From: Candidatus Nomurabacteria bacterium GW2011_GWE2_34_25
GTDB taxonomy: Bacteria; Patescibacteriota; Minisyncoccia; Phycocordibacterales; UBA9973
Length of the DNA stretch: 64,000 nt
Direction of reading: 5' to 3'
Assembly: GCA_000990325.1 (NCBI GenBank)
Contig: LBPS01000008.1
Span: 97-64,096, forward strand
A model generated the notes under the pieces. It searched no databases, was not told the origin of the DNA, and saw only the letters and a program-made list of their open reading frames with translations. Positions 13,578 through 58,262 of this stretch are shown piece by piece. A program made the position numbers and the translations under genes. How positions within the stretch are numbered: position 1 is the stretch's first letter; every line of letters begins with the position of its first letter.

Positions 13578-14642
13578 ATGAAACTTAGCTTAATAATCCC
13601 AACATATAACGAAAAAGAAAACATTAGAATCCTCATTCTTAAATTAGAGGAGGAGTTTAATCTAAATAAAATTGATGGAGAAATAATAGTTGTTGATGAT
13701 AATTCCCCAGATGGTACGGGTATTATTTTAGATGATTTAAAAATGAAATATGTTTTTCTTAGGGTAATTCACAGAGAAGGAAAGTTGGGACTTTCTTCGG
13801 CTGTTGTAGCAGGGTTTAACCTTGCAAAAGGGGATATATTAGGGGTTATGGATGCCGATTTAAGCCATTCTCCCGAAAAGGTCAATGAAATGTATCAAGA
13901 GATAATAAAGGGTGCAGATTTTGTGGTTGGGAGTAGGTATATAAAAGGAGGTAAAATAGAGGGTTGGAATATTTATAGAAAATTATTATCACTAGGCGCA
14001 ACTTTATTTGCTCGAGTTTATACTAGTGTCAAAGATCCCATGTCTGGATTTTTTATGTTTAAAAAAGACCTTTTATTAAACAAAGAAATAAATCCAAAAG
14101 GTTTTAAAATTTTACTTGAATTATTGATTAAATTAGAATACAAACAAATAGTAGAAATACCGATTGTTTTTATAAATAGGACAGTAGGGAAGAGCAAGGC
14201 TGGAACCAGAGAGATAATTTATTATTTAGAAAATTTAATCAAATACCTTCCTTATAAAAAAGAGGTCATTGGAGAATTTTTAAAATTCATATTAGTAGGG
14301 TTAGTCGGAACTTTTGTAAATATAATCATCTTATACTCATTTACTGAATATTATAATGTTTATTATTTATATTCAGCCCTCCTTTCTTTTGTTGTTGCAG
14401 TTACTGTTAATTTCATTCTAAATAAAATATGGACCTTTAATGAGAAAATAGGCTATAAAATATTTCAAAAATACATAAAATTCTTTTCAGTAAGTCTTTT
14501 TGCTCTTTCTGTCAATATATTTTTTTTAATTTTACTAACGGAAGTATTTGGATTATATTATATATATTCTCAGATCCTAGCCATAGGTATGTCTTTAGTT
14601 ATAAATTTTATTGGTAATAAAATTTGGACATTTTGCAAATAA
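13578..14642 (+). CDS. Polyprenol-phosphate glycosyltransferase (DPM1-like GT2 domain) fused to a GtrA-like 4-TM domain
   Basis: MKLSLIIPTYNEKENI...VVDDNSPDGTG...DADLSH motifs, and a C-terminal GtrA-like hydrophobic domain. Confidence 0.8.
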   Translation: MKLSLIIPTYNEKENIRILILKLEEEFNLNKIDGEIIVVDDNSPDGTGIILDDLKMKYVFLRVIHREGKLGLSSAVVAGFNLAKGDILGVMDADLSHSPEKVNEMYQEIIKGADFVVGSRYIKGGKIEGWNIYRKLLSLGATLFARVYTSVKDPMSGFFMFKKDLLLNKEINPKGFKILLELLIKLEYKQIVEIPIVFINRTVGKSKAGTREIIYYLENLIKYLPYKKEVIGEFLKFILVGLVGTFVNIIILYSFTEYYNVYYLYSALLSFVVAVTVNFILNKIWTFNEKIGYKIFQKYIKFFSVSLFALSVNIFFLILLTEVFGLYYIYSQILAIGMSLVINFIGNKIWTFCK

Positions 14643-16108
14643 TAAAAAAAATAAAGGAATACTGGCTTAGTCTTGATAAAATAGATAAATACATTATCTT
14701 ATTGTTAGTTTTTTCTTTTTTAATTAGAATAACTTTTCTAACTTATTCTCCTCTTAGAGGGTGGGATGAAACTGTTTATATGAATTTAGGTAGTGATTTA
14801 AGTCATAATCCTTTCTTCTACTCACTTGAAAAAAGTGGCTGGAATGACTTTATATCAATTCCTGAACCTGTATATGAGTGGCCCAATATTGGATTTAGAG
14901 CTCCTTTGTTGCCATATCTATTATCTATTTTTTATTCTTTAAATCTAATTTTTTTGATTCCATTTTTGATTCCATTTTTTGCAACACTTAGTGTTTTCCT
15001 AGTTTACATTTTAGGCAAGAACATGTTTAATAAGAAAATTGGATTTTATGGTGCTACTCTTTTTTCTCTAGTACCGATAAATATATTGAGTAGTGAAAAA
15101 ATATGGACTGATTCATTGGTTGTCTTTTTTTTACTTCTGACTTTTATTAGTTTCTGGAAAGGTTACGAAAAAAATGATAATAAACATAAGGTATTTTTTG
15201 GTATATTTTTAGCATTATCTTTAATGACTAGATATACAACTCTATGGATTACTCCCGTGTTTCTTCTATACTTCTTGATAAGAGACAAATCTTTGAAATT
15301 TATGCTTGATAAATATCTTTGGAGAGCTATTTTATCATTTTTCGTTGTTCTAATTCCTTGGTTTATTTATGGTTGTGTCTTTTACCAAAATCCGATTGGG
15401 GGCTTTATACACGGTTTTAAGGCAGCTGCTTATTGGGGAGGAGTGCAATCCTGGAGCTTTTTCATTGATAATTCATGGTTAATATTTTCAATTATTGGAT
15501 GGTTATTTTTGTTTTCAATTATTTATATCTTTTACAAGAAAGAGTTTTTAAGAAGAGATATTTATTTGTTGCTACTGTGGAGTCTTTTTTTCTCTTCGAT
15601 AGTTATGGCTATGCCACACAAAGAAGAAAGATTTATAACACCAATAATTCCAGCCATCTGTCTAATTTCTGCATTCTTTGTTTATCAATTAAAAAAATAT
15701 AAGAATATATTTTTTATAATGATATGTTTAACTTTGCTGTATTCATCTTATCTTTTATATAAAGCTAATGTAAAAGAGTCATTAAATACAGTTAATATAT
15801 GTTTTTCGTCAGGAAATAATTTTCTTGCTACAGAAACTGGTGTTGATTCATTAATAATAACAAATCAGGATTCAATCGTTCATTACTATACACAGAGAGA
15901 CACGATTATTTATCCAAAAGTTTGGAGTTTAAAAAATCTTAAAACAACAATAGATGTAATGTACCCATATAGTAATGTTTATGTTTATTTTTCAAACTAT
16001 GACATGTATATACCAAGTAGAATTAAAAATGATCTTGATGAAAATTTTGAGAAGATATATGAATGTAATATAGAAATAGGACATTCTTATGTTTATAAGT
16101 ATAGATAA
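14624..16108 (+). CDS. GT-C family glycosyltransferase (ArnT/PMT-like, family 39/83) integral membrane protein
   Basis: About 12 predicted TM helices and an N-terminal loop typical of dolichyl/undecaprenyl-phosphate sugar transferases. The start is uncertain. Confidence 0.65.
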   Translation: MDILQIIKKIKEYWLSLDKIDKYIILLLVFSFLIRITFLTYSPLRGWDETVYMNLGSDLSHNPFFYSLEKSGWNDFISIPEPVYEWPNIGFRAPLLPYLLSIFYSLNLIFLIPFLIPFFATLSVFLVYILGKNMFNKKIGFYGATLFSLVPINILSSEKIWTDSLVVFFLLLTFISFWKGYEKNDNKHKVFFGIFLALSLMTRYTTLWITPVFLLYFLIRDKSLKFMLDKYLWRAILSFFVVLIPWFIYGCVFYQNPIGGFIHGFKAAAYWGGVQSWSFFIDNSWLIFSIIGWLFLFSIIYIFYKKEFLRRDIYLLLLWSLFFSSIVMAMPHKEERFITPIIPAICLISAFFVYQLKKYKNIFFIMICLTLLYSSYLLYKANVKESLNTVNICFSSGNNFLATETGVDSLIITNQDSIVHYYTQRDTIIYPKVWSLKNLKTTIDVMYPYSNVYVYFSNYDMYIPSRIKNDLDENFEKIYECNIEIGHSYVYKYR

Positions 16109-16123
16109 AAGAAGTTGGAGCCG

Positions 16124-16251
16124 GCAAACGAGTTTCGGTCACAAATCTTTTTCTACTGAAAAAGTTCGCGACCCCGGCTCGGCTCGTCAGCCTGCGCCTT
16201 TCGAATCCTCGTGCCGGCAAAAAAGATGTCATTTAGACATCTTTTTTATTG
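16124..16251 (-). repeat. tRNA-adjacent structured repeat element (copy D), ending in an inverted and a direct copy of the tRNA-Thr 3' end
   Basis: The core on the minus strand (ggctgacgagccgag...ctttttcagtagaaaaag...gtgaccgaaa) is homologous to the cores at 57085, 49320 and 58190. An inverted copy ttcgaatcctcgtgccggc sits at 16200-16218. A direct partial copy gagccggcaaacgag sits at 16126-16140. The hairpin aaaaagatgtc-atttag-gacatcttttt lies internally. Confidence 0.7.
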
Positions 16252-16324
16252 AGCCGGCACGAGGATTCGAACCCCGGACATCCACTTTACAAAAGTGGCG
16301 CTCTACCAACTGAGCTATGCCGGC
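16252..16324 (-). tRNA. tRNA-Thr (anticodon TGT)
   Basis: Cloverleaf GCCGGCA/TGCCGGC acceptor, GCTC/GAGC D-stem, anticodon loop TTTGTAA, and T-loop TTCGAAT. Read by eye. Confidence 0.85.
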
Positions 16325-16394
16325 ATATTTAAAATATGCAAAATTTAACATCCAACCTAACGAAACTACTTTCTTACTAAGCTATACTAGCATA

Positions 16395-46756: not shown

Positions 46757-48421
46757 ATGGAAACAAAGACTTGTCAAAACTGTAAAAATGACTTCATAAT
46801 TGAGCCAGATGACTTTTCTTTCTATGAGAAAATGAAAGTTCCTGTACCTAAAATTTGTCCAGATTGTCGCTTTAAAATGAGGGCAATGTGGAGAAATGAG
46901 ATGAGTATGTATTCAGGACGAAAGTGCGGTTTATGTGGCAAAAGTGTATTATCTATTTACAATCTCAAATCCCCATTTACAACATATTGTTATGAATGTT
47001 TTTATTCTGAAAAATGGAGTCCCAAAGATTATGCAACTCTATACGATAAGTCACGACCATTCTTTGATCAAATGGGGGAGTTTTTAATTAAAGTTCCTAA
47101 GATAAATTTAGGTATTTCTACTGGAGATGGACCAAATATAAATAGTGAATATGTGAATATGGCTGGAGGATGCAAGAATTGTTATCTTGTTTTTAATACA
47201 AGTCCTGCTGAAGAATTACTTTATTCTAGGGGTGTAAAGAGTGGTATTTTTTCTTCTGACATTTATTTTGGAGTGAAGTTTGAGAACTGTTACGATTGCG
47301 TGAGTATTCAAGAATCAGCCAATGTTTTCTGGGGACAAAACATTATGGGCTGTGTAGATTCCTATTTTATTTTAAATGGTAGTGGTCTCACGAATTGTTT
47401 TGGCTGTGTTAATTTAAGGAATAAAAGTAATTGTTGGTTTAATGAGCAATTAACTTCCGAAGAATATAAAACAAGATTGGGTGAAGTTATGGGTAGCTAT
47501 TCAAAAATATTAGAAGCTCGCAAGAAATTTGAAGAATTTTGTTTACAGCATCCACATAAAGAGAACAATAATTTAAAAACGATAAATTCTGTGGGGGACT
47601 ACTTAACTGAATGCAAAAATGTTGTAAATTCTTTTGAAGTGGCAAAATCAGAAGATTGTCGTTATATTTTTTCATCTAAAATGATTAAGGATTCTTTGGG
47701 AACAACTGGATTTGGGACAAAATCTGAAAGATTACTTGAAGTTGTTGCGACTGGACATTCTAGTAATATTATAGGTTCTTATTGGGCGGAAAATTGTAGT
47801 AATGTAATGTATTCTTTTGATTTGAGAAATTGCCATGATTGTATAGGGTGTGACGCTCTAAAGAATGGTAAATATGCCATTTTTAACAAAGAATATTCAA
47901 AGGAAGAATACGAGGAATTAAAGGCTCATATTGTTAAAGAGCTTACAGAACAGGGGATACATGGGCTCATGATGCCAGTAATTATCGCTCCATTTGCATA
48001 CAATGAAACAATTGCTCAAGATAATTTCTCACTAACCAAAGAGGAAGCATTGGCCCAAGGCTATAGGTGGGAAGATGATATACAGATGACTAAGGGCAAG
48101 GATACAATACAGCTAGATGACATAGAAGATAATATCAAAGATATTAGAGATTCTATAACAAGTGAAATATTGAAATGCATCTCTTGCGAAAGGAATTATA
48201 AGATTACGGAGCAAGAGCTACTTTTTTACAGAAAAATGGTCCTACCTATTCCTCGTCAGTGTTTCTATTGTCGTCATCAGGATAGAATAAAAAGGCGAGG
48301 TCCATATAAATTCTGGGATAGGAAATGTGATCATTGTGATAAAGATATTAAAACCAATTATTCACCAGAACGTAAGGAAATAATATACTGCGAGAAGTGT
48401 TATCAGCAGGAAGTAATATAG
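46757..48421 (+). CDS. Cys-rich repeat protein with terminal tandem zinc ribbons (paralog 4 of 4)
   Basis: 554 aa. N-terminal CQNCKNDFIIEPDDFSFYEKMKVPVPKICPDCR...RKCGLCG, C-terminal CISCERNYKI...FYRKMVLPIPRQCFYCR...CDHCDKDIKTNYSPERKEIIYCEKCYQQEVI, and internal CHDCIGCDALKNGKYAIFNKEYSKEEYEEL repeats. Confidence 0.8.
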   Translation: METKTCQNCKNDFIIEPDDFSFYEKMKVPVPKICPDCRFKMRAMWRNEMSMYSGRKCGLCGKSVLSIYNLKSPFTTYCYECFYSEKWSPKDYATLYDKSRPFFDQMGEFLIKVPKINLGISTGDGPNINSEYVNMAGGCKNCYLVFNTSPAEELLYSRGVKSGIFSSDIYFGVKFENCYDCVSIQESANVFWGQNIMGCVDSYFILNGSGLTNCFGCVNLRNKSNCWFNEQLTSEEYKTRLGEVMGSYSKILEARKKFEEFCLQHPHKENNNLKTINSVGDYLTECKNVVNSFEVAKSEDCRYIFSSKMIKDSLGTTGFGTKSERLLEVVATGHSSNIIGSYWAENCSNVMYSFDLRNCHDCIGCDALKNGKYAIFNKEYSKEEYEELKAHIVKELTEQGIHGLMMPVIIAPFAYNETIAQDNFSLTKEEALAQGYRWEDDIQMTKGKDTIQLDDIEDNIKDIRDSITSEILKCISCERNYKITEQELLFYRKMVLPIPRQCFYCRHQDRIKRRGPYKFWDRKCDHCDKDIKTNYSPERKEIIYCEKCYQQEVI

Positions 48422-48468: not shown

Positions 48469-49245
48469 ATGCAAAATAAAAAACAAAAAAACAAAAAGGA
48501 TACTTCATGGAATAGTGTATCGAGTTGGTACGATGAATTGTTGAAAGGGGATGATAGCTATCAAGCGAAGGTTATATTGCCGAATTTACTTCGATTTCTT
48601 GATTTGAAGAAAGGAGAAACAGTTTTTGATCTTGCTTGTGGTCAAGGGTATTTTGCCAATGTTTTTGCTCATAATGGGGCAGATGTTACGGCTTCAGATT
48701 TATCCAAGAATTTAATAGAAACTGCCAAGAAGAATTCTAAAGAAAAAGTTGTTTTCTATATATCACCTGCACATAAGGCGCAATTTTTAAAAGATAGTTC
48801 CGTTGATACTATCGTTATTGTACTTGCTACTCAAAATATTGAAAACATAAACGAAGTCTTTGTTGAATGTAAAAGGGTTCTTAAAAAGAGTGGGCGAATG
48901 GTTCTAGTTTTGAATCATCCAGCTTTTCGTATTCCACAAGGTAGTGATTGGGTTTTTGAAAGTGGAGTTCAATCTCGTATTATTAGCCAGTATCTATCGC
49001 CATCCAAAATATTTATCGATATGACTCCAGGAGAGAAAAATCCAAAGAAGAAAATTAAAACAATATCTTTCCATCGCTCACTTCAAGATTATATGAAGGT
49101 TTTTTCTAAAAGTGGCCTTGTCATCACACGTCTTGAAGAGTGGATCTCGCACAAGCAAAGCGGGTCAGGTCCTCGTCAAATAGCTGAAGATAAAGCTCGC
49201 AAAGAAATTCCTATGTTTATGTGTATAGAGATTAAAAAAATATAA
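48469..49245 (+). CDS. Class I SAM-dependent methyltransferase
   Basis: Motif I VFDLACGQGYF and a post-I acidic residue (TASDLS). Rossmann-fold MTase pattern. Confidence 0.75.
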   Translation: MQNKKQKNKKDTSWNSVSSWYDELLKGDDSYQAKVILPNLLRFLDLKKGETVFDLACGQGYFANVFAHNGADVTASDLSKNLIETAKKNSKEKVVFYISPAHKAQFLKDSSVDTIVIVLATQNIENINEVFVECKRVLKKSGRMVLVLNHPAFRIPQGSDWVFESGVQSRIISQYLSPSKIFIDMTPGEKNPKKKIKTISFHRSLQDYMKVFSKSGLVITRLEEWISHKQSGSGPRQIAEDKARKEIPMFMCIEIKKI

Positions 49246-49291
49246 TTAATAACAAAAAGCTACTTCTCAAATAGCTCTCTTTGATAGCGTA

Positions 49292-49397
49292 TTCTTGAAT
49301 AGTCTTATCAGAGGGGCCGGCGGAGAGTGACGACTCGAGCAATGAGCAAATTTTCAGCAGAAAATTATGCGGACCCTCTGAGAAGAGCTATTCAAGA
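49292..49397 (+). repeat. Structured repeat element copy A (~105 bp), with terminal inverted repeats tcttgaatagtcttatcagagggg / ccctctgagaagagctattcaaga
   Basis: The core ggcggagagtgacgactcgagcaatgagcaaattttcagcagaaaattatgcgg is homologous to the cores at 57085 and 58190 (reverse complement) and 16140 (reverse complement). It lies between convergent genes. Confidence 0.75.
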
Positions 49398-49406
49398 AGA
49401 AGCTTA

Positions 49407-49985
49407 CTAATTTATTTTCTCCAATGCCTTAGGAATTTTATTGAAATCTTTTATAAGAGTTTCTCTCATTCCTCCATTATATAATGCAGCGGCAGGGTGG
49501 TAGAGGGGGAGGAAGGCTTGCTTTTTGCCTAGCTCAGGGATGGATTTGATTAAGAGCTTACCATGCACGTCAGAGATTTTTTCCGTAGGAAAAAATCGAA
49601 GCATTGAATGCCTCCCTAGGAATACAATAAGTTTAGGTGAAATTATTTTTAATTCGGCTATGAGCCACTCATTACATTCTTCTTTTTCATTTGGCTCCGG
49701 ATCTCTATTGTCAGGTGGACGATATTTTACAATATTTGTTATGTAGATATCCTCTCTTTTCATTCCTATACCTTCAAGCATTTCACTAAGGAACTTTCCT
49801 GCTGCTCCTATAAATGGTTTACCACCCTCATCTTCCTTTTTTCCTGGAGCTTCCCCTATAAAGACTATCTCACTTTCCGCATTACCATCGCCAAAAACGG
49901 CTTGTTTAGCAGTCTTTTTAAGATCACAAGTACAATTCTCTTGCCAATATATGTTCAACTTGTCTAATTGTTCTCGTTTTGACAT
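49407..49985 (-). CDS. Family 4 uracil-DNA glycosylase (Fe-S type)
   Basis: GEAPGKKEDEGGKPFIGAAGKFL motif, N-terminal Cys residues (ENCTCDL), and C-terminal HPAAALY. Confidence 0.8.
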   Translation of the reverse strand: MSKREQLDKLNIYWQENCTCDLKKTAKQAVFGDGNAESEIVFIGEAPGKKEDEGGKPFIGAAGKFLSEMLEGIGMKREDIYITNIVKYRPPDNRDPEPNEKEECNEWLIAELKIISPKLIVFLGRHSMLRFFPTEKISDVHGKLLIKSIPELGKKQAFLPLYHPAAALYNGGMRETLIKDFNKIPKALEKIN

Positions 49986-50025
49986 TTCACTATTATAACA
50001 TTTTGTAATTTGATATAATAGAAGA

Positions 50026-50622
50026 ATGCCAGACAAAATCATACTTAATCAAAAATTTTGGAATATGAGAGAAGAAGATCTACCTTGTCTTATTACTTAT
50101 GGGAACAAATCTGGTGGTTCATATTTTTCTGTTGTAACACTTGCCAATTTATTATTAGCTGGATCAAAAGTTTTATTATTTACGGCTTATCCTATGGCTA
50201 AAGATAATTTCTTGGGGCAAATTAAAGGAGGTGGACAAGATGTATCTTATATTTCAAATGAAAGTGAACTAAATAGCAAAACGGGAGCTATTATAATAGA
50301 AAGTGGTAATGAAGAATTATTCTTAAAAGCTCTTGAAAAATTAGATGACATAGAAGATCGTGTAGTTCTAATAAAGAATATTGAAGTATTTGATTCTACC
50401 ACTATTGAAGCTTGTTTAAAACTCAAGAAAGTAATCATTTCAGGTGATATAGATCTTTGTTCTTCCAACAAGCTTATTATGGATAAGCAGTTCAATACAA
50501 TCGTTATTTTTTCTAATCCAAAGGTAACATTATCATTTGATGTTCCAGAATTAGAAAAATATAAAGGTTATTTGTGGAGTATTAATAGTAAGGGCATCGT
50601 CGCTGTCCAAAAAGAAAATTAA
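50026..50622 (+). CDS. Hypothetical protein
   Basis: A 198-aa ORF with no recognised motif. Confidence 0.35.
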   Translation: MPDKIILNQKFWNMREEDLPCLITYGNKSGGSYFSVVTLANLLLAGSKVLLFTAYPMAKDNFLGQIKGGGQDVSYISNESELNSKTGAIIIESGNEELFLKALEKLDDIEDRVVLIKNIEVFDSTTIEACLKLKKVIISGDIDLCSSNKLIMDKQFNTIVIFSNPKVTLSFDVPELEKYKGYLWSINSKGIVAVQKEN

Positions 50623-56750: not shown

Positions 56751-56909
56751 ATGTCACAAGATAGACTTTTCAAATTAGGCTGTACTAAATGCAAGCGCAT
56801 TAACTACTGGTCAAGCAAAAACAAGAAACTCGTTACTAAAAAGATCGAGCTCAAGAAGTATTGCAAATGGTGTAAAGTAAACACTAAACACAAAGAGGTT
56901 AAAAAGTAA
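56751..56909 (+). CDS. rpmG: 50S ribosomal protein L33
   Basis: 52 aa with Cys pairs (LGCTKCKRINYWSSKNKK...KKYCKWCKVNTKHKEVK). The classic rpmG with tRNA-Trp arrangement. Confidence 0.85.
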   Translation: MSQDRLFKLGCTKCKRINYWSSKNKKLVTKKIELKKYCKWCKVNTKHKEVKK

Positions 56910-56936
56910 AAAATCCCCATCTGGGGATTTTTTACT
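56908..56936 (+). terminator. Rho-independent terminator aaaaatcccca-tctg-gggattttt
   Basis: A perfect stem with flanking A and T runs immediately after the rpmG stop. Confidence 0.8.
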
Positions 56937-56962
56937 TTTTATGCTATATTATGTACGTTATT

Positions 56963-57033
56963 GGGCGATTAGTTTAGTGGTAGAACGATGGTCTCCAAAA
57001 CCATTGGTGGGGGTCCGATTCCTCCATCGCCCG
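56963..57033 (+). tRNA. tRNA-Trp (anticodon CCA)
   Basis: Acceptor GGGCGAT/ATCGCCC, anticodon stem ATGGT/ACCAT, loop CTCCAAA, and T arm GGGGG-TCCGATT-CCTCC. Confidence 0.85.
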
Positions 57034-57035
57034 CA

Positions 57036-57182
57036 AGAAAATAAACAAGATGTTATCTTGTCTATTTTAGATGGAAGAATCGGAAGACGGAGGCTGACGA
57101 GCCGAGTTGGGGTCGAGAGATTTTTCAGCAGAAAAATAATCGTGACCGAAAGTGTAATCACGATTCCTCCATCGTTCGCAGT
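57036..57182 (+). repeat. tRNA-adjacent structured repeat element (copy C), with an inverted and a direct copy of the tRNA-Trp 3' end
   Basis: Hairpin aacaagat-gtt-atcttgt, inverted copy gatggaagaatcg, core ggaggctgacgagccgagttggggtcgagagatttttcagcagaaaaataatcgtgaccgaaag, then direct copy cgattcctccatcgttcg (compare tRNA cgattcctccatcgcccg). Same layout as copy D at tRNA-Thr. Confidence 0.75.
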
Positions 57183-58136: not shown

Positions 58137-58164
58137 TTTGTGTGTGAATATATAAATTAGCTTC

Positions 58165-58262
58165 TTTCGAAATGCACACATAATTTTCTGCTGAAAATTT
58201 GCTCTTCTCGACCCGTCGGTCTCCGAAAGGCATTTCTTAAGAACTAATTTATATATTCGCAT
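58165..58262 (-). repeat. Structured repeat element copy B (minus-strand orientation) in the miaA upstream region
   Basis: The reverse complement reads ggagaccgacgggtcgagaagagcaaattttcagcagaaaattatgtgtgc. A 26-bp stretch is identical to copy A. It is flanked by imperfect inverted repeats (ctttcgaaatgc / gcatttcttaag). Confidence 0.7.

Follow-up and report, generated by a model that had tools for sequence, protein, structure and literature searches.

The window analysed here is a stretch of 64,000 nt from Candidatus Nomurabacteria bacterium GW2011_GWE2_34_25 (GCA_000990325.1, contig LBPS01000008.1, positions 97-64,096, forward strand). Two of its five tRNA genes, tRNA-Thr(UGU) and tRNA-Trp(CCA), are each followed by a copy of a structured repeat (copies D and C, respectively), and two further copies (A and B) lie in intergenic DNA. 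The other three tRNA genes are free of the element. The features are listed in Table 1.

Table 1. Features of the four copies in the window. MFE-based boundary calls for the short type over-extend and define no target-site duplications.
Feature	Position	Strand	Description	Basis
tRNA-Thr(UGU)	16251..16324	-		ARAGORN; Rfam tRNA 70.2 bits
X of D	~16271-16253	-	tRNA-Thr 3' part from T-loop C56	sequence
Hairpin of D	16219..16247	-	A-run / GATGTC-taaat-GACATC / T-run	sequence; read-through transcript fold
X' of D	16200..16218	-	GCCGGCACGAGGATTCGAA; 19/19 reverse complement of tRNA-Thr 3' end	
J1/2 and P2 of D	P2 16198-16176	-	J1/2 GAAA; P2a, GCA/GA internal loop, GGCU-GACG-AGCC	MFE fold and helix covariation
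J2/3 and P3 of D	P3 16173-16137	-	J2/3 GG; P3 loop AGUA	MFE fold and helix covariation
X* of D	16118..16137	-	CGAAACTCGTTTGCCGGCTC; decayed direct copy of tRNA-Thr 3' end	local alignment, homology from -19
Core of D	16135-16204	-		covariance model, 84.9 bits (partly circular)
Remnant upstream of A	49262..49285	+	agctacttctcaaatagctctc; 5'-arm-like, ~20/24 match to reverse complement of 3' arm	by eye
Copy A	49292..49398	+	P1 arms 49292-49315 / 49374-49398 with bulged G; core 49316-49373	
Core of A	49313-49378	+		covariance model, 46.3 bits
tRNA-Trp(CCA)	56963..57034	+		ARAGORN; Rfam
X of C	57016-57033	+	left direct repeat	sequence
Hairpin of C	57045..57061	+	ACAAGAT-gtt-ATCTTGT, between X and X'	sequence; fold
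X' of C	57070..57083	+	GATGGAAGAATCGG; antisense to tRNA-Trp T-arm/acceptor, one mismatch	
Core of C	57080-57149	+		covariance model, 79.2 bits (partly circular)
P2 of C	57086-57108	+	GAC/GUU, GGA/GA loop, GGCU-GACG-AGCC	fold
P3 of C	57111-57147	+	loop AGCA	fold
Mini-hairpin of C	57152..57161	+	optional; GUG-UAAU-CAC, between P3 and X*	
X* of C	57161..57178	+	CGATTCCTCCATCGTTCG; direct copy of tRNA-Trp 3' end, 14 nt identical	
Copy B	58146..58258	-	P1 arms 58258-58230 / 58175-58146; core 58229-58176	
Core of B	58176-58233	-		covariance model, 50.8 bits

Downstream of tRNA-Thr, the order is a hairpin, an inverted copy of the tRNA 3' end (X'), the conserved core and a direct near-copy of the tRNA 3' end (X*). 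This is exactly the layout given in a preliminary description of this DNA. The 3' part of the tRNA gene (X) is the left direct repeat and also the 5' strand of P1 of the element. The duplex of X' with X has an energy of -38.7 kcal/mol, versus -24.0 kcal/mol with X*. In the fold of the read-through transcript, X pairs with X', the tRNA body is closed by X*, and the hairpin lies at the tip of the X:X' helix. X* abuts the stop codon of a convergent GT39 gene (ORF end 16108). The apparent CCA in this X* is uninformative, because relatives encode CCA in the gene flank. Relatives compared through the GT39 gene, at 64-70% identity, do not keep tRNA-Thr there. Spurious ORFs of 69-74 aa overlie copy D.

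Copy C has the same layout from the tRNA through to the direct copy, again exactly as described. The direct copy reads cgattcctccatcgTTcg, against cgattcctccatcgCCcg in tRNA-Trp itself, and the duplex energies of X' are -24.1 kcal/mol with X and -18.2 kcal/mol with X*. The mini-hairpin of copy C recurs in two related loci (L039 and L008:4600-4669). The hairpins after both tRNAs had been called terminator-like. They are flanked by A/T and resemble terminators by eye, but a simple terminator scan makes no call for either of them. Every copy had been described as closed by an outer inverted repeat, and each copy folds with an outer stem; in the tRNA-type copies, the X'/X* helix is the weaker alternative.

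Copies C and D represent a long architecture, and copies A and B a short one. Copy A lies between two convergent genes annotated by Pfam, a methyltransferase gene (48469-49245, plus strand) and a UDG gene (49407-50042, minus strand). This site is empty in L181 and L182, where the two genes overlap, and in L179 it contains a match in the opposite orientation, which is weak and diverged (20.8 bits). The 5'-arm-like sequence upstream of copy A is probably the leftover of an older copy, judging from its resemblance to the arm. Copy B is located just upstream of miaA (IPP transferase by Pfam, start ~58136, minus strand). Copies A and B look like the junction of C and D opened at the distal tip of P1, which gives a long-stem hairpin in intergenic DNA. 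No third copy of the arm was found around the short-type elements.

A covariance model, one of the checks proposed in the preliminary description, was built from 58 homologues of other genomes together with window copies C and D, and was scanned against the window and related loci. In the window it has exactly four matches (D, C, B and A), at essentially the places where at least four copies of a conserved core had been described. The scores of copies C and D are partly circular, because both are in the training alignment. The fifth-best match in the window reaches 17.9 bits (E ~0.01) and lies within an ORF. In 697 kb of the loci listed, at least 120 in number, it has 131 matches. The motif TTTTCAGCAGAAAA occurs nine times in the window with up to two mismatches, against 2.4 expected, and none of 100 shuffles reached nine. 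All four copies fold as a three-way junction closed by an outer stem, with MFE z-scores of -5.1 (D), -3.3 (C), -5.7 (A, -52.3 kcal/mol) and -7.6 (B, -41.9 kcal/mol). The copy density is ~4 per 64 kb in the window.

What is conserved in the element is a three-way junction specific to one strand. Its joining segments are GAAA or GCAA (J1/2) and GG (J2/3). In P2, a P2a of 3 bp is followed by a G(N)A/GA internal loop and by a hairpin that varies but usually has a GACG loop; P3, a long hairpin that usually has an AGCA loop, contains a conserved G·U pair and a bulged A and ends in ...GUGAC(C). In the long type, 95.8% of the cells are paired and 15 of the 23 pairs show double changes. This level of pairing was reached by none of 500 shuffles, and slid controls gave 37-48%. 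In the short type, P2b and P3 are paired at 97.8% and 96.9%, respectively. G·U pairs outnumber A·C pairs (101 versus 10), and for 59 of 64 short copies and 55 of 59 long copies the better fold is that of the given strand rather than that of its complement. The earlier suggestion of an ncRNA-style covarying structure is thus upheld by strong, strand-specific covariation. The compensatory change reported between the stems of the two tRNA-type copies is present (C-UUUUUC/GAAAAA-G in D, A-UUUUUC/GAAAAA-U in C). The conserved central hairpin needs a correction: its stem covaries, but neither the loops (GACG and AGCA) nor the U-rich stem is invariant. The conserved nucleotides are those proximal to the junction; farther out, the hairpins vary or exchange positions. 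Alignments A1 and A2 overstate the conservation of GACG and AGCA, because the sampling was seeded with an exact pattern and drew on the matches listed. The junction is made of different nucleotides in the short and the long type. Perfect stems reach 38 bp.

Among the matches listed, at least 120 Patescibacteria species genomes carry the family, and nearly all named records belong to Patescibacteria lineages; two metagenome bins are labelled Bdellovibrionales (L025) and Pseudomonadales (L034). Only three model matches were found on viral contigs, all of them short IMG/VR contigs, and a viral origin was rejected on this ground. With Rfam 15 at the gathering score, the window gave matches to tRNAs only; a search at E up to 10 with copies D and C gave nothing beyond tRNA-related and chance matches, and only rRNA, tRNA and RNase P were found in 18 related loci. 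No description of this element was found in open-access papers, where the nearest subject was group I introns in Patescibacteria tRNA genes. The family is large, apparently undescribed, ~100-150 bases long and gene-less, and has so far been seen in Patescibacteria (CPR) only. A protein partner was sought by clustering 894 ORFs within 1.2 kb of the copies, and the recurrent families were all housekeeping ones, as are the Pfam-annotated neighbours of the copies in the window. The earlier statement that the element carries no integrase holds: the unit of 130-150 nt is ORF-less, and no protein family recurs among its neighbours. Copies are positioned at the ends of genes. Among short-type copies between co-directional genes, 20 of 29 are antisense and 9 are sense.

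Many copies are associated with tRNA genes. Of the 63 long copies, 25 have a tRNA on the same strand within the 160 nt upstream of them, and the tRNA-type copies are always co-oriented with the tRNA. The repeat homology starts at C56 in 11 cases, and the counted cases comprise tRNA-Ser, Leu, Glu, Gly, Trp and Thr; the direct repeats starting there are 14-29 nt long. In a second insertion class (five cases), the homology starts from the acceptor end. Beyond the T-loop, no obvious short motif is shared by the insertion sites. Cores at different tRNAs are 92-95% identical, and the arms match the local tRNA. The proximal copy of the repeat completes the tRNA recognised by ARAGORN and Rfam, and the distal copy is degenerate. 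The inserted unit includes a functional tRNA 3' end and the hairpin after it. In 19 of 24 cases, X is a better pairing partner for X' than X* is, and P1 of the element is therefore a closed X:X' hairpin. The inserted unit runs from the new tRNA 3' end (X) through the trailer with its terminator-like hairpin and the antisense X' to P2 and P3. Pairing of X and X' gives the unit its own closed P1, so that the element ends meet at the junction, and the old tRNA 3' end (X*) is pushed downstream as a direct repeat and decays. Such an insertion would be harmless, because the tRNA is intact and the hairpin after it is kept. Both putative junctions of copy D read C|GA(A/U)UCC. A TT|CGAA sequence (BstBI-type site) falls on the U55|C56 junction; the centre of the palindrome is the hairpin loop, not this sequence.

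The preliminary description had made its mobile-element reading depend on whether orthologous tRNA-Thr loci of relatives include sites that lack the element. Behind an identical tRNA-Thr, the element follows in ~21 metagenome loci and is absent in ~27. Because both empty and filled sites exist, the mobile-element reading survives this comparison. Alignment of an empty locus (L145) with a filled one (L130) shows a ~135-nt insertion in the latter, and the sequence after X* in L130 is homologous to that after the tRNA in L145. This alignment and the tRNA 3'-end repeats support a miniature tRNA-targeting mobile element. In L175, the segment from the tRNA through X' is 100% identical to the window over 122 nt, including the trailer, hairpin and X' of copy D, and the flanking genes are 70-78% identical; in L149, the identity is 92% over 210 nt, versus 69-81% in the flanks. 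Full and truncated units in tandem were found in L149, L162, L147, L165 and L128, and most remnants keep the 3' end only. L009 contains a nested insertion flanked by AGATT. The repeats are 5 nt in L009, 9-10 nt in L096 and 14-29 nt in the tRNA type; this range of direct repeats is unlike that of any single transposase. L002 and L099 carry orthologous copies that keep P1 through compensatory changes. Such old, vertically inherited-looking positions would also fit a resident function. Overall, the family is mobile, or recently was.

The observed family, with its structure, strand specificity, insertion polymorphism, sites and architecture, is probably best explained as an ORF-less mobile family of ~100-150 nt with a three-way junction and with tRNA and short types, which would move by a single-stranded, homology-guided route. 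For the movement itself, we infer a single-stranded, probably circular intermediate. A circular molecule of this kind would explain the two permuted architectures, and it would more likely be RNA than ssDNA. Its X' strand may pair with a target resembling its own X, and strand exchange would occur immediately 5' of X. Candidate catalysts are a host enzyme acting in trans and the junction RNA itself. Homologous recombination, with the conserved tRNA gene as its anchor, could also spread the element among relatives at the same tRNA. A simple read-through transcript is an awkward active form, because the short-type copies are more often antisense than sense (20 versus 9).

The same observations can be read without any movement. 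The element may be a resident cis-acting RNA, namely a structure of tRNA trailers or UTRs that works as a terminator or insulator, as a platform for RNase III or RNase P, or as a switch in which X' chooses between the tRNA 3' end and the decoy X*, with copies arising by local duplication. Such an RNA would account for the strand-specific, RNA-like covariation with GNRA-like and tandem-GA motifs, the constant co-orientation with the tRNA, the two mutually exclusive pairings of X', the positions at gene ends and the compensatory changes in P1 of the L002 and L099 orthologues, and RNase III would find substrates in the perfect stems, which reach 38 bp. However, a resident RNA does not easily explain why the same tRNA and the same intergenic site are filled or empty, with a diverged opposite-orientation copy at the latter, or why nested and tandem truncated copies occur. 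It also leaves aside the fully identical segment shared by genomes that are 70-78% identical elsewhere, the 20 of 29 antisense copies between co-directional genes, and the three of five window tRNAs that lack the element. A pure tRNA-trailer RNA, as previously proposed, in particular misfits copies A and B and the many copies antisense to operons. We therefore give a resident RNA little probability. Movement as a ssDNA hairpin, mobilised in trans by an HUH/Y1 transposase (as in IS200/IS605-derived elements) or by a tyrosine recombinase acting on a folded site such as integron attC or the CTX-phage attP, with the X:X' hairpin mimicking a double-stranded target, seems rather unlikely. A structure conserved above sequence on one strand only, a folded P1 that reproduces the duplex of the tRNA gene 3' end, and base-pairing-like homology in target choice would all suit this route; T-loop integration, the tRNA 3'-end repeat and tandem arrays are known products of tRNA-targeting recombinases. 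Nevertheless, no transposase or integrase recurs beside the copies, the T-loops of at least six tRNA species serve as targets, each with arms to match, and the repeats vary in length. Features such as GNRA-like junctions, tandem G·A and many G·U pairs are more typical of RNA. Moreover, the subtypes show opposite orientation biases relative to genes, and thus no single replication-strand rule applies.

The element may also act at the RNA level in the manner of an intron. A small self-cleaving and self-ligating ribozyme, or a substrate of a host endonuclease and ligase, would be cut 5' of X and of X*, released as a circular RNA (X, hairpin, X', P2, P3) and inserted into T-loops by the reverse reaction, with fixation in DNA by reverse transcription or recombination. 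The read-through transcript of copy D, which folds as a tRNA with the element in its T-loop and has matching putative junctions, is in line with this model, as are the meeting of the element ends at the conserved three-way junction beside the conserved G·U pair and the conservation of junction-proximal nucleotides next to variable or swapped distal hairpins. Also in its favour, the two architectures resemble circular permutations of one molecule, remnants mostly keep the 3' end only, and no protein partner was found near the copies. We still consider this model improbable, because searches at E up to 10 give no match to a known ribozyme class, the junction nucleotides differ between short and long types, and many copies are antisense to surrounding transcription. 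The functional tRNA of copy D clearly uses X rather than X*, and therefore needs no splicing. The source of a reverse transcriptase is not evident: group II introns, and hence their reverse transcriptases, are reported to be absent from Patescibacteria (PMC13011429), which weakens an RNA-to-DNA route. Highly doubtful is the far-reaching version in which the element would be a protein-independent, RNA-guided integrating circular-RNA replicon of ~100-150 nt. Strand exchange immediately 5' of the X'-pairing sequence would be reversible and would be catalysed by its junction, or by a general RNA ligase or endonuclease that the junction recruits; the element would thereby enter and leave tRNA T-loops and other RNA ends rich in hairpins, with subsequent fixation in DNA.

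The homology-guided mobile family that we favour can be compared with known systems. Elements with tyrosine integrases reportedly integrate in the T-loop, the anticodon loop or the 3' end of tRNA genes. Prophages, ICEs and islands that target tRNA genes resemble the present element in the insertion into the tRNA 3' part with a displaced direct repeat, the replacement 3' end and the tandem arrays. In contrast to them, the element is only ~130-150 nt long, without a linked integrase or any gene, contains an antisense copy of the tRNA end and an RNA-like three-way junction, and exists in versions for at least six tRNA species at the T-loop.

Correia/NEMIS, ERIC, RUP, BOX, REP/BIME and the Rickettsia palindromic elements are small palindromic intergenic repeats. 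Like these repeats and MITEs, the element is small, ORF-less, multi-copy, palindromic, intergenic at gene ends and insertion-polymorphic, and its long stems are likely to affect transcripts. The pattern of a conserved apex with variable arms is opposite to that of TIR-defined MITEs; the covariation is strand-specific, and one lineage is specialised for tRNA T-loops. Shared TIRs and a target-site duplication of fixed length were not found, as the arms differ by copy and the repeats vary in length. No autonomous partner was found among the neighbouring ORFs, and we know of no parent transposon.

Integron attC sites, the CTX-phage attP and the IS200/IS605 ends are folded single-strand sites, and the target of IS200/IS605 is read by guide base pairing. 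The element shares with them a one-strand hairpin whose shape is conserved above its sequence. Unlike them, it has no R/L boxes, no conserved tetranucleotide target and no nearby cognate enzyme, and it conserves the three-way junction rather than the stem base. By eye, the R''/R' boxes of attC (RYYYAAC ... GTTRRRY) are absent from the stem bases, which are tRNA-derived or locus-specific, and no integrase is nearby. In palindromic elements derived from IS200/IS605 (PATEs), a Y1 TnpA recognises subterminal hairpins, and insertion is 3' of a fixed tetra- or pentanucleotide; TnpA or TnpB does not recur among the ORFs neighbouring the copies.

The group I introns in Patescibacteria tRNA genes occur in the same phylum, target tRNA genes, are RNA-structured and lack protein genes, as does the element. 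They are, however, group I ribozymes that RF00028 detects, occupy position 35/36 of the anticodon loop and depend on splicing, whereas the element lies at C56 or the acceptor end, is 2-3 times smaller and follows a complete tRNA. A group I intron was rejected because there is no RF00028 match, the core is only ~70 nt and a complete tRNA precedes the element. Retrozymes, viroid-like circular RNAs and tRNA-related SINEs are small non-autonomous elements defined by structured RNA. The element resembles them in these respects, and a circular intermediate is plausible for it; it differs in its bacterial host and in having no hammerhead, hairpin or twister motif, LTR or PBS. A hammerhead is suggested by CUGACGAG...CGAAA in copies C and D, but copy A reads GUGACGA and copy B reads CCGACGG. 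This candidate was rejected, since its bases belong to the covarying P2b stem and loop in 58 and 68 homologues and Rfam gives no match. X' was rejected as an LTR-type tRNA primer-binding site, because neither the discriminator nor the CCA end has a complement in X', and priming by a mature tRNA is thus not feasible. A K-turn in P2 was also rejected, as the bulge of the internal loop is 1 nt by eye, not 3 nt.

A gene-less unit of ~130-150 nt that enters T-loops while repairing its target fits neither transposons nor integrase-driven islands nor known introns. Patescibacteria have among the smallest bacterial genomes. Should integration be directed by the junction or the X' arm, the element would represent a novel class of structured RNA and a novel insertion system, both minimal and programmable; should it depend on a host enzyme, the element would mark an unrecognised recombination pathway in an uncultivated phylum. 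Were it a circular-RNA replicon, it would be the bacterial equivalent of viroid- or retrozyme-like agents and would have a ribozyme or guide architecture of a new kind. Odd flanks of tRNA genes and pseudo-tRNA fragments in metagenome-assembled genomes are explained by the element, which is also a marker for strain-level variation. Its addition to RNA and repeat libraries would avoid spurious ORF annotation, such as that over copy D.

The window was searched with R1, a covariance model that comprises 58 sequences from other genomes and from copies C and D of the window. Exactly four strong matches were detected, and these are the four copies of the preliminary description, which are therefore real. 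The window is AT-rich and possesses five tRNA genes. The central motif was enriched (nine matches against 2.4 expected), and all four copies folded far better than shuffled sequence (z of -3.3 to -7.6). The next-best match in the window (48208-48267, minus strand, 17.9 bits) lies within a protein-coding ORF, as does a weak match of 25.9 bits in a tsaD homologue of another locus (L122:5092-5152, plus strand). Both are probably chance matches or very decayed copies.

Copies of the repeat family in the window and their scores with the model R1
Copy	Position	Strand	R1 score (bits)	Remark
D	16135-16204	-	84.9	partly circular, D is in the model
C	57080-57149	+	79.2	partly circular, C is in the model
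B	58176-58233	-	50.8	
A	49313-49378	+	46.3	

Every window copy folds into a three-way junction. P1 is a variable outer helix. In P2, a 3-bp P2a and a 4-bp P2b flank an internal loop in which G(G/C)A faces GA, and a GACG loop caps the helix. P3, a long hairpin, carries a bulged A and ends in an AGCA or AGUA loop. The long type (C and D) has a P3 extension (GGUC.../...GAC(C)); the short type (A and B) has a P1 of 25-38 bp. Among 58 long-type homologues, 95.8% of the cells were paired, compared with 77.8% in shuffled sequences and 37-48% when the partners were slid. Two-sided changes were observed in 15 of the 23 pairs, and none of 500 shuffles matched the observed covariation values. Thus, the covarying conserved structure claimed in the preliminary description is borne out for the long type. 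In 68 short-type homologues, P2b and P3 were paired in 97.8% and 96.9%, respectively.

G·U pairs greatly exceeded A·C pairs (101 versus 10), and the given strand gave the better fold of the two strands in 59 of 64 short copies and 55 of 59 long copies. Thus, the structure is strand-specific. One particular G·U pair was kept in 48 of the 58 long-type sequences. In copies that were detected with the model and not with the seed pattern, the distal modules vary or are even swapped; in a subtype of about 94 nt, P2 carries the U-rich/AGCA module and P3 the GA/GACG/GA module. In relatives, the loops and lengths of P2 and P3 at the tRNA-Thr locus differ between copies, and the constant string is junction-proximal (GAAAG-NCC-GGA...GA-GGN-GG-GGUCG...GUGAC). 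The truly conserved part is therefore the surroundings of the junction, and the distal modules are variable.

A tRNA gene was present on the same strand within 160 nt upstream in 25 of 63 long-type copies and in none of 66 short-type copies. At tRNA-Thr (copy D) and tRNA-Trp (copy C), the layout is as had been claimed: the tRNA is followed by an A/T-flanked hairpin, an inverted tRNA 3' end, the core and a direct tRNA 3' end. The sequence 3' of P3 (X*) repeats the tRNA's own 3' end (X). The homology begins at C56 of the T-loop in 11 cases (tRNA-Ser, Leu, Glu, Gly, Trp and Thr) and at the acceptor end (...CAC AAAG) in five, and it may continue into the trailer, as in L008, where 29 nt are identical. 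X', the 5' arm, is antisense to this tRNA segment, with 19 of 19 positions complementary in copy D. Since X' pairs more strongly with X than with X* in 19 of 24 cases, the stable structure is X, hairpin and X' (closed P1). P2 and P3 follow, so that the two ends of the unit come together at the junction. The minimum free energy fold of the copy D read-through transcript contained this closed P1 together with a tRNA body closed by X*. Thus, the transcript resembles a tRNA with an insertion in the T-loop.

Several further features were observed around these copies. An optional mini-hairpin, (A)AGUGUA(A/C)UCAC, lies between the P3 end and X* in three genomes (window 57152-57161, L039 and L008:4600-4669). 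Immediately 5' of tRNA-Trp, a strong 19-bp A/T-flanked hairpin (TAAAAAGTAAAAAATCCCC...GGGGATTTTTTACTTTTTA, window 56900-56941) was called terminator-like on the minus strand. Two mechanical ORFs spanning copy D and tRNA-Thr (16023-16232, minus strand, 69 aa; 16089-16313, plus strand, 74 aa) are artefacts that stem from the GC-rich, structured DNA, and annotation could mistake them for genes. In two other loci (L060:1500-1760 and L092:4190-4480), the copy is embedded in tRNA fragments: it is directly preceded by partial 5' fragments of tRNA-Arg(UCU) and tRNA-Asn(GUU), and the complete tRNA lies 60-100 nt downstream. The L092 core is followed by a segment antisense to the tRNA D/anticodon region.

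Metagenome contigs were scanned with the 3' end of the window tRNA-Thr, which gave 50 loci with the identical tRNA. Many of these share the same convergent downstream gene and are therefore orthologous. About 21 possess the element, about 27 possess an ordinary hairpin or the next gene only, and in one (L175) the trailer, hairpin and X' are present without the core. Filled and empty sites therefore both occur in the comparison that the preliminary description had proposed. Alignment of an empty locus (L145) with a filled one (L130) revealed an insertion of about 135 nt, and the L130 sequence beyond X* is homologous to the L145 sequence directly 3' of the tRNA. Thus, the inserted unit consists of one X plus trailer, hairpin, X', P2 and P3. 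Further downstream units were present at several loci, either full (hairpin, X', core and X*; L149 and L165) or truncated, mostly to the 3' part of P3 and X* (L137, L144, L147 and L162). Hairpin and X' alone are retained in L175 and L128.

Signs of mobility were also found at other sites. L009 has a nested copy: it possesses an intrinsic closed P1 (loop GGGA), lies between direct repeats of AGATT and is inserted in reverse orientation in the X* of an older element 3' of tRNA-Ser. L096 has a repeat of 9-10 nt. The methyltransferase/UDG intergenic site showed three states: empty with overlapping genes (L181 and L182), a diverged short-type match in the opposite orientation (L179; 20.8 bits, E of about 4e-4), and copy A with an arm remnant in the window. 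Furthermore, when cores from different genomes and different tRNAs were compared, their identity was 92-95%, and the arms matched the local tRNA. Thus, the core is portable. Short-type copies of two species occupy the same dprA-like/serS intergenic position (L002:2176-2239 and L099:2419-2482) in sense orientation upstream of serS; their distal P1 sequences differ and complementarity is kept.

An exact-pattern scan with one genome per species gave at least 120 loci, and nearly all named records were from Patescibacteria lineages. The matches listed include Nomura-, Kaiser-, Zambryski-, Yonath-, Niyogi-, Vogel-, Adler- and Moranbacteria, Paceibacterota and bins labelled Saccharibacteria. Two TPA bins labelled Bdellovibrionales and Pseudomonadales (L025 and L034) are taken to be binning or labelling errors. 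R1 detected 131 copies in 697 kb of the listed loci, and viral contigs had only three copies. No matching family was found in Rfam 15, even at E up to 10, and no description of the element was found in the open-access papers searched. The nearest published work concerns group I introns that interrupt Patescibacteria tRNA genes at position 35/36, and it reports that group II introns are missing from Patescibacteria (PMC13011429). Another short repeat family, with hairpins such as gtcatcctcgcgaagg... and gtcattcccgtgaagacgggaatcc, recurs beside or upstream of the element in L030, L094 and L096.

The element thus forms a widespread family of strand-specific, structured, ORF-less repeats in Patescibacteria, and its insertion is polymorphic. 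In one lineage, integration takes place at C56 of the T-loop, or else at the acceptor end, in many tRNA genes, and the element brings along a replacement for the 3' end as well as an antisense arm. The preliminary finding is real, and its main interpretation as a mobile tRNA-targeting element holds. The footprint is like that of tRNA-targeting integrative elements, but the integrase is absent. Size and abundance are like those of MITE/REP-type repeats, but conserved terminal repeats and a fixed target duplication are absent. Therefore, the element fails defining features of both.

Between relatives, spread at a given tRNA may be no more than homologous recombination anchored on the invariant tRNA gene. 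L149 and the window are 92% identical across the whole 210 nt and 69-81% identical in the flanks. L175:1600-1721 and window 16204-16325 are identical over all 122 nt (tRNA-Thr, trailer, hairpin and X' up to GGATT), compared with 70-78% identity in the flanking genes; L175 lacks the core and X*, and its X' lies directly against the convergent gene's stop codon. The abrupt stop of the identity in L175 is consistent with homology-facilitated illegitimate recombination. Truncated remnants may stem from instability of the long X*, hairpin and X' palindromes, or from abortive copying. For integration itself, the tRNA type (closed P1, ends at the junction) and the short type (open P1 tip) resemble circular permutations of a single molecule, and this suggests that the intermediate is single-stranded and circular. 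X' might act as a guide by pairing with a target that is similar to the X of the element itself, and strand exchange would occur immediately 5' of X; either a host enzyme or the RNA itself could be the catalyst. The chance of a categorically new mechanism is modest.

No recurrent protein family was found near the copies, and no third arm copy was found near the short-type copies. Relative to co-directional genes, short-type copies were antisense in 20 cases and sense in nine. The forward-strand conservation therefore probably comes from the mobile form or from selection against the sense orientation, rather than from a function in host mRNA. The neighbors in the window are housekeeping genes (GT39, methyltransferase, UDG, alanine racemase, Ddl and MiaA). 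Homologues of the GT39 glycosyltransferase adjoining copy D (14624-16108), with about 50% identity, are labelled Woesearchaeota, Nanoarchaeota, "archaeon" and Patescibacteria; the archaeal labels could reflect CPR/DPANN gene sharing or mis-binning.
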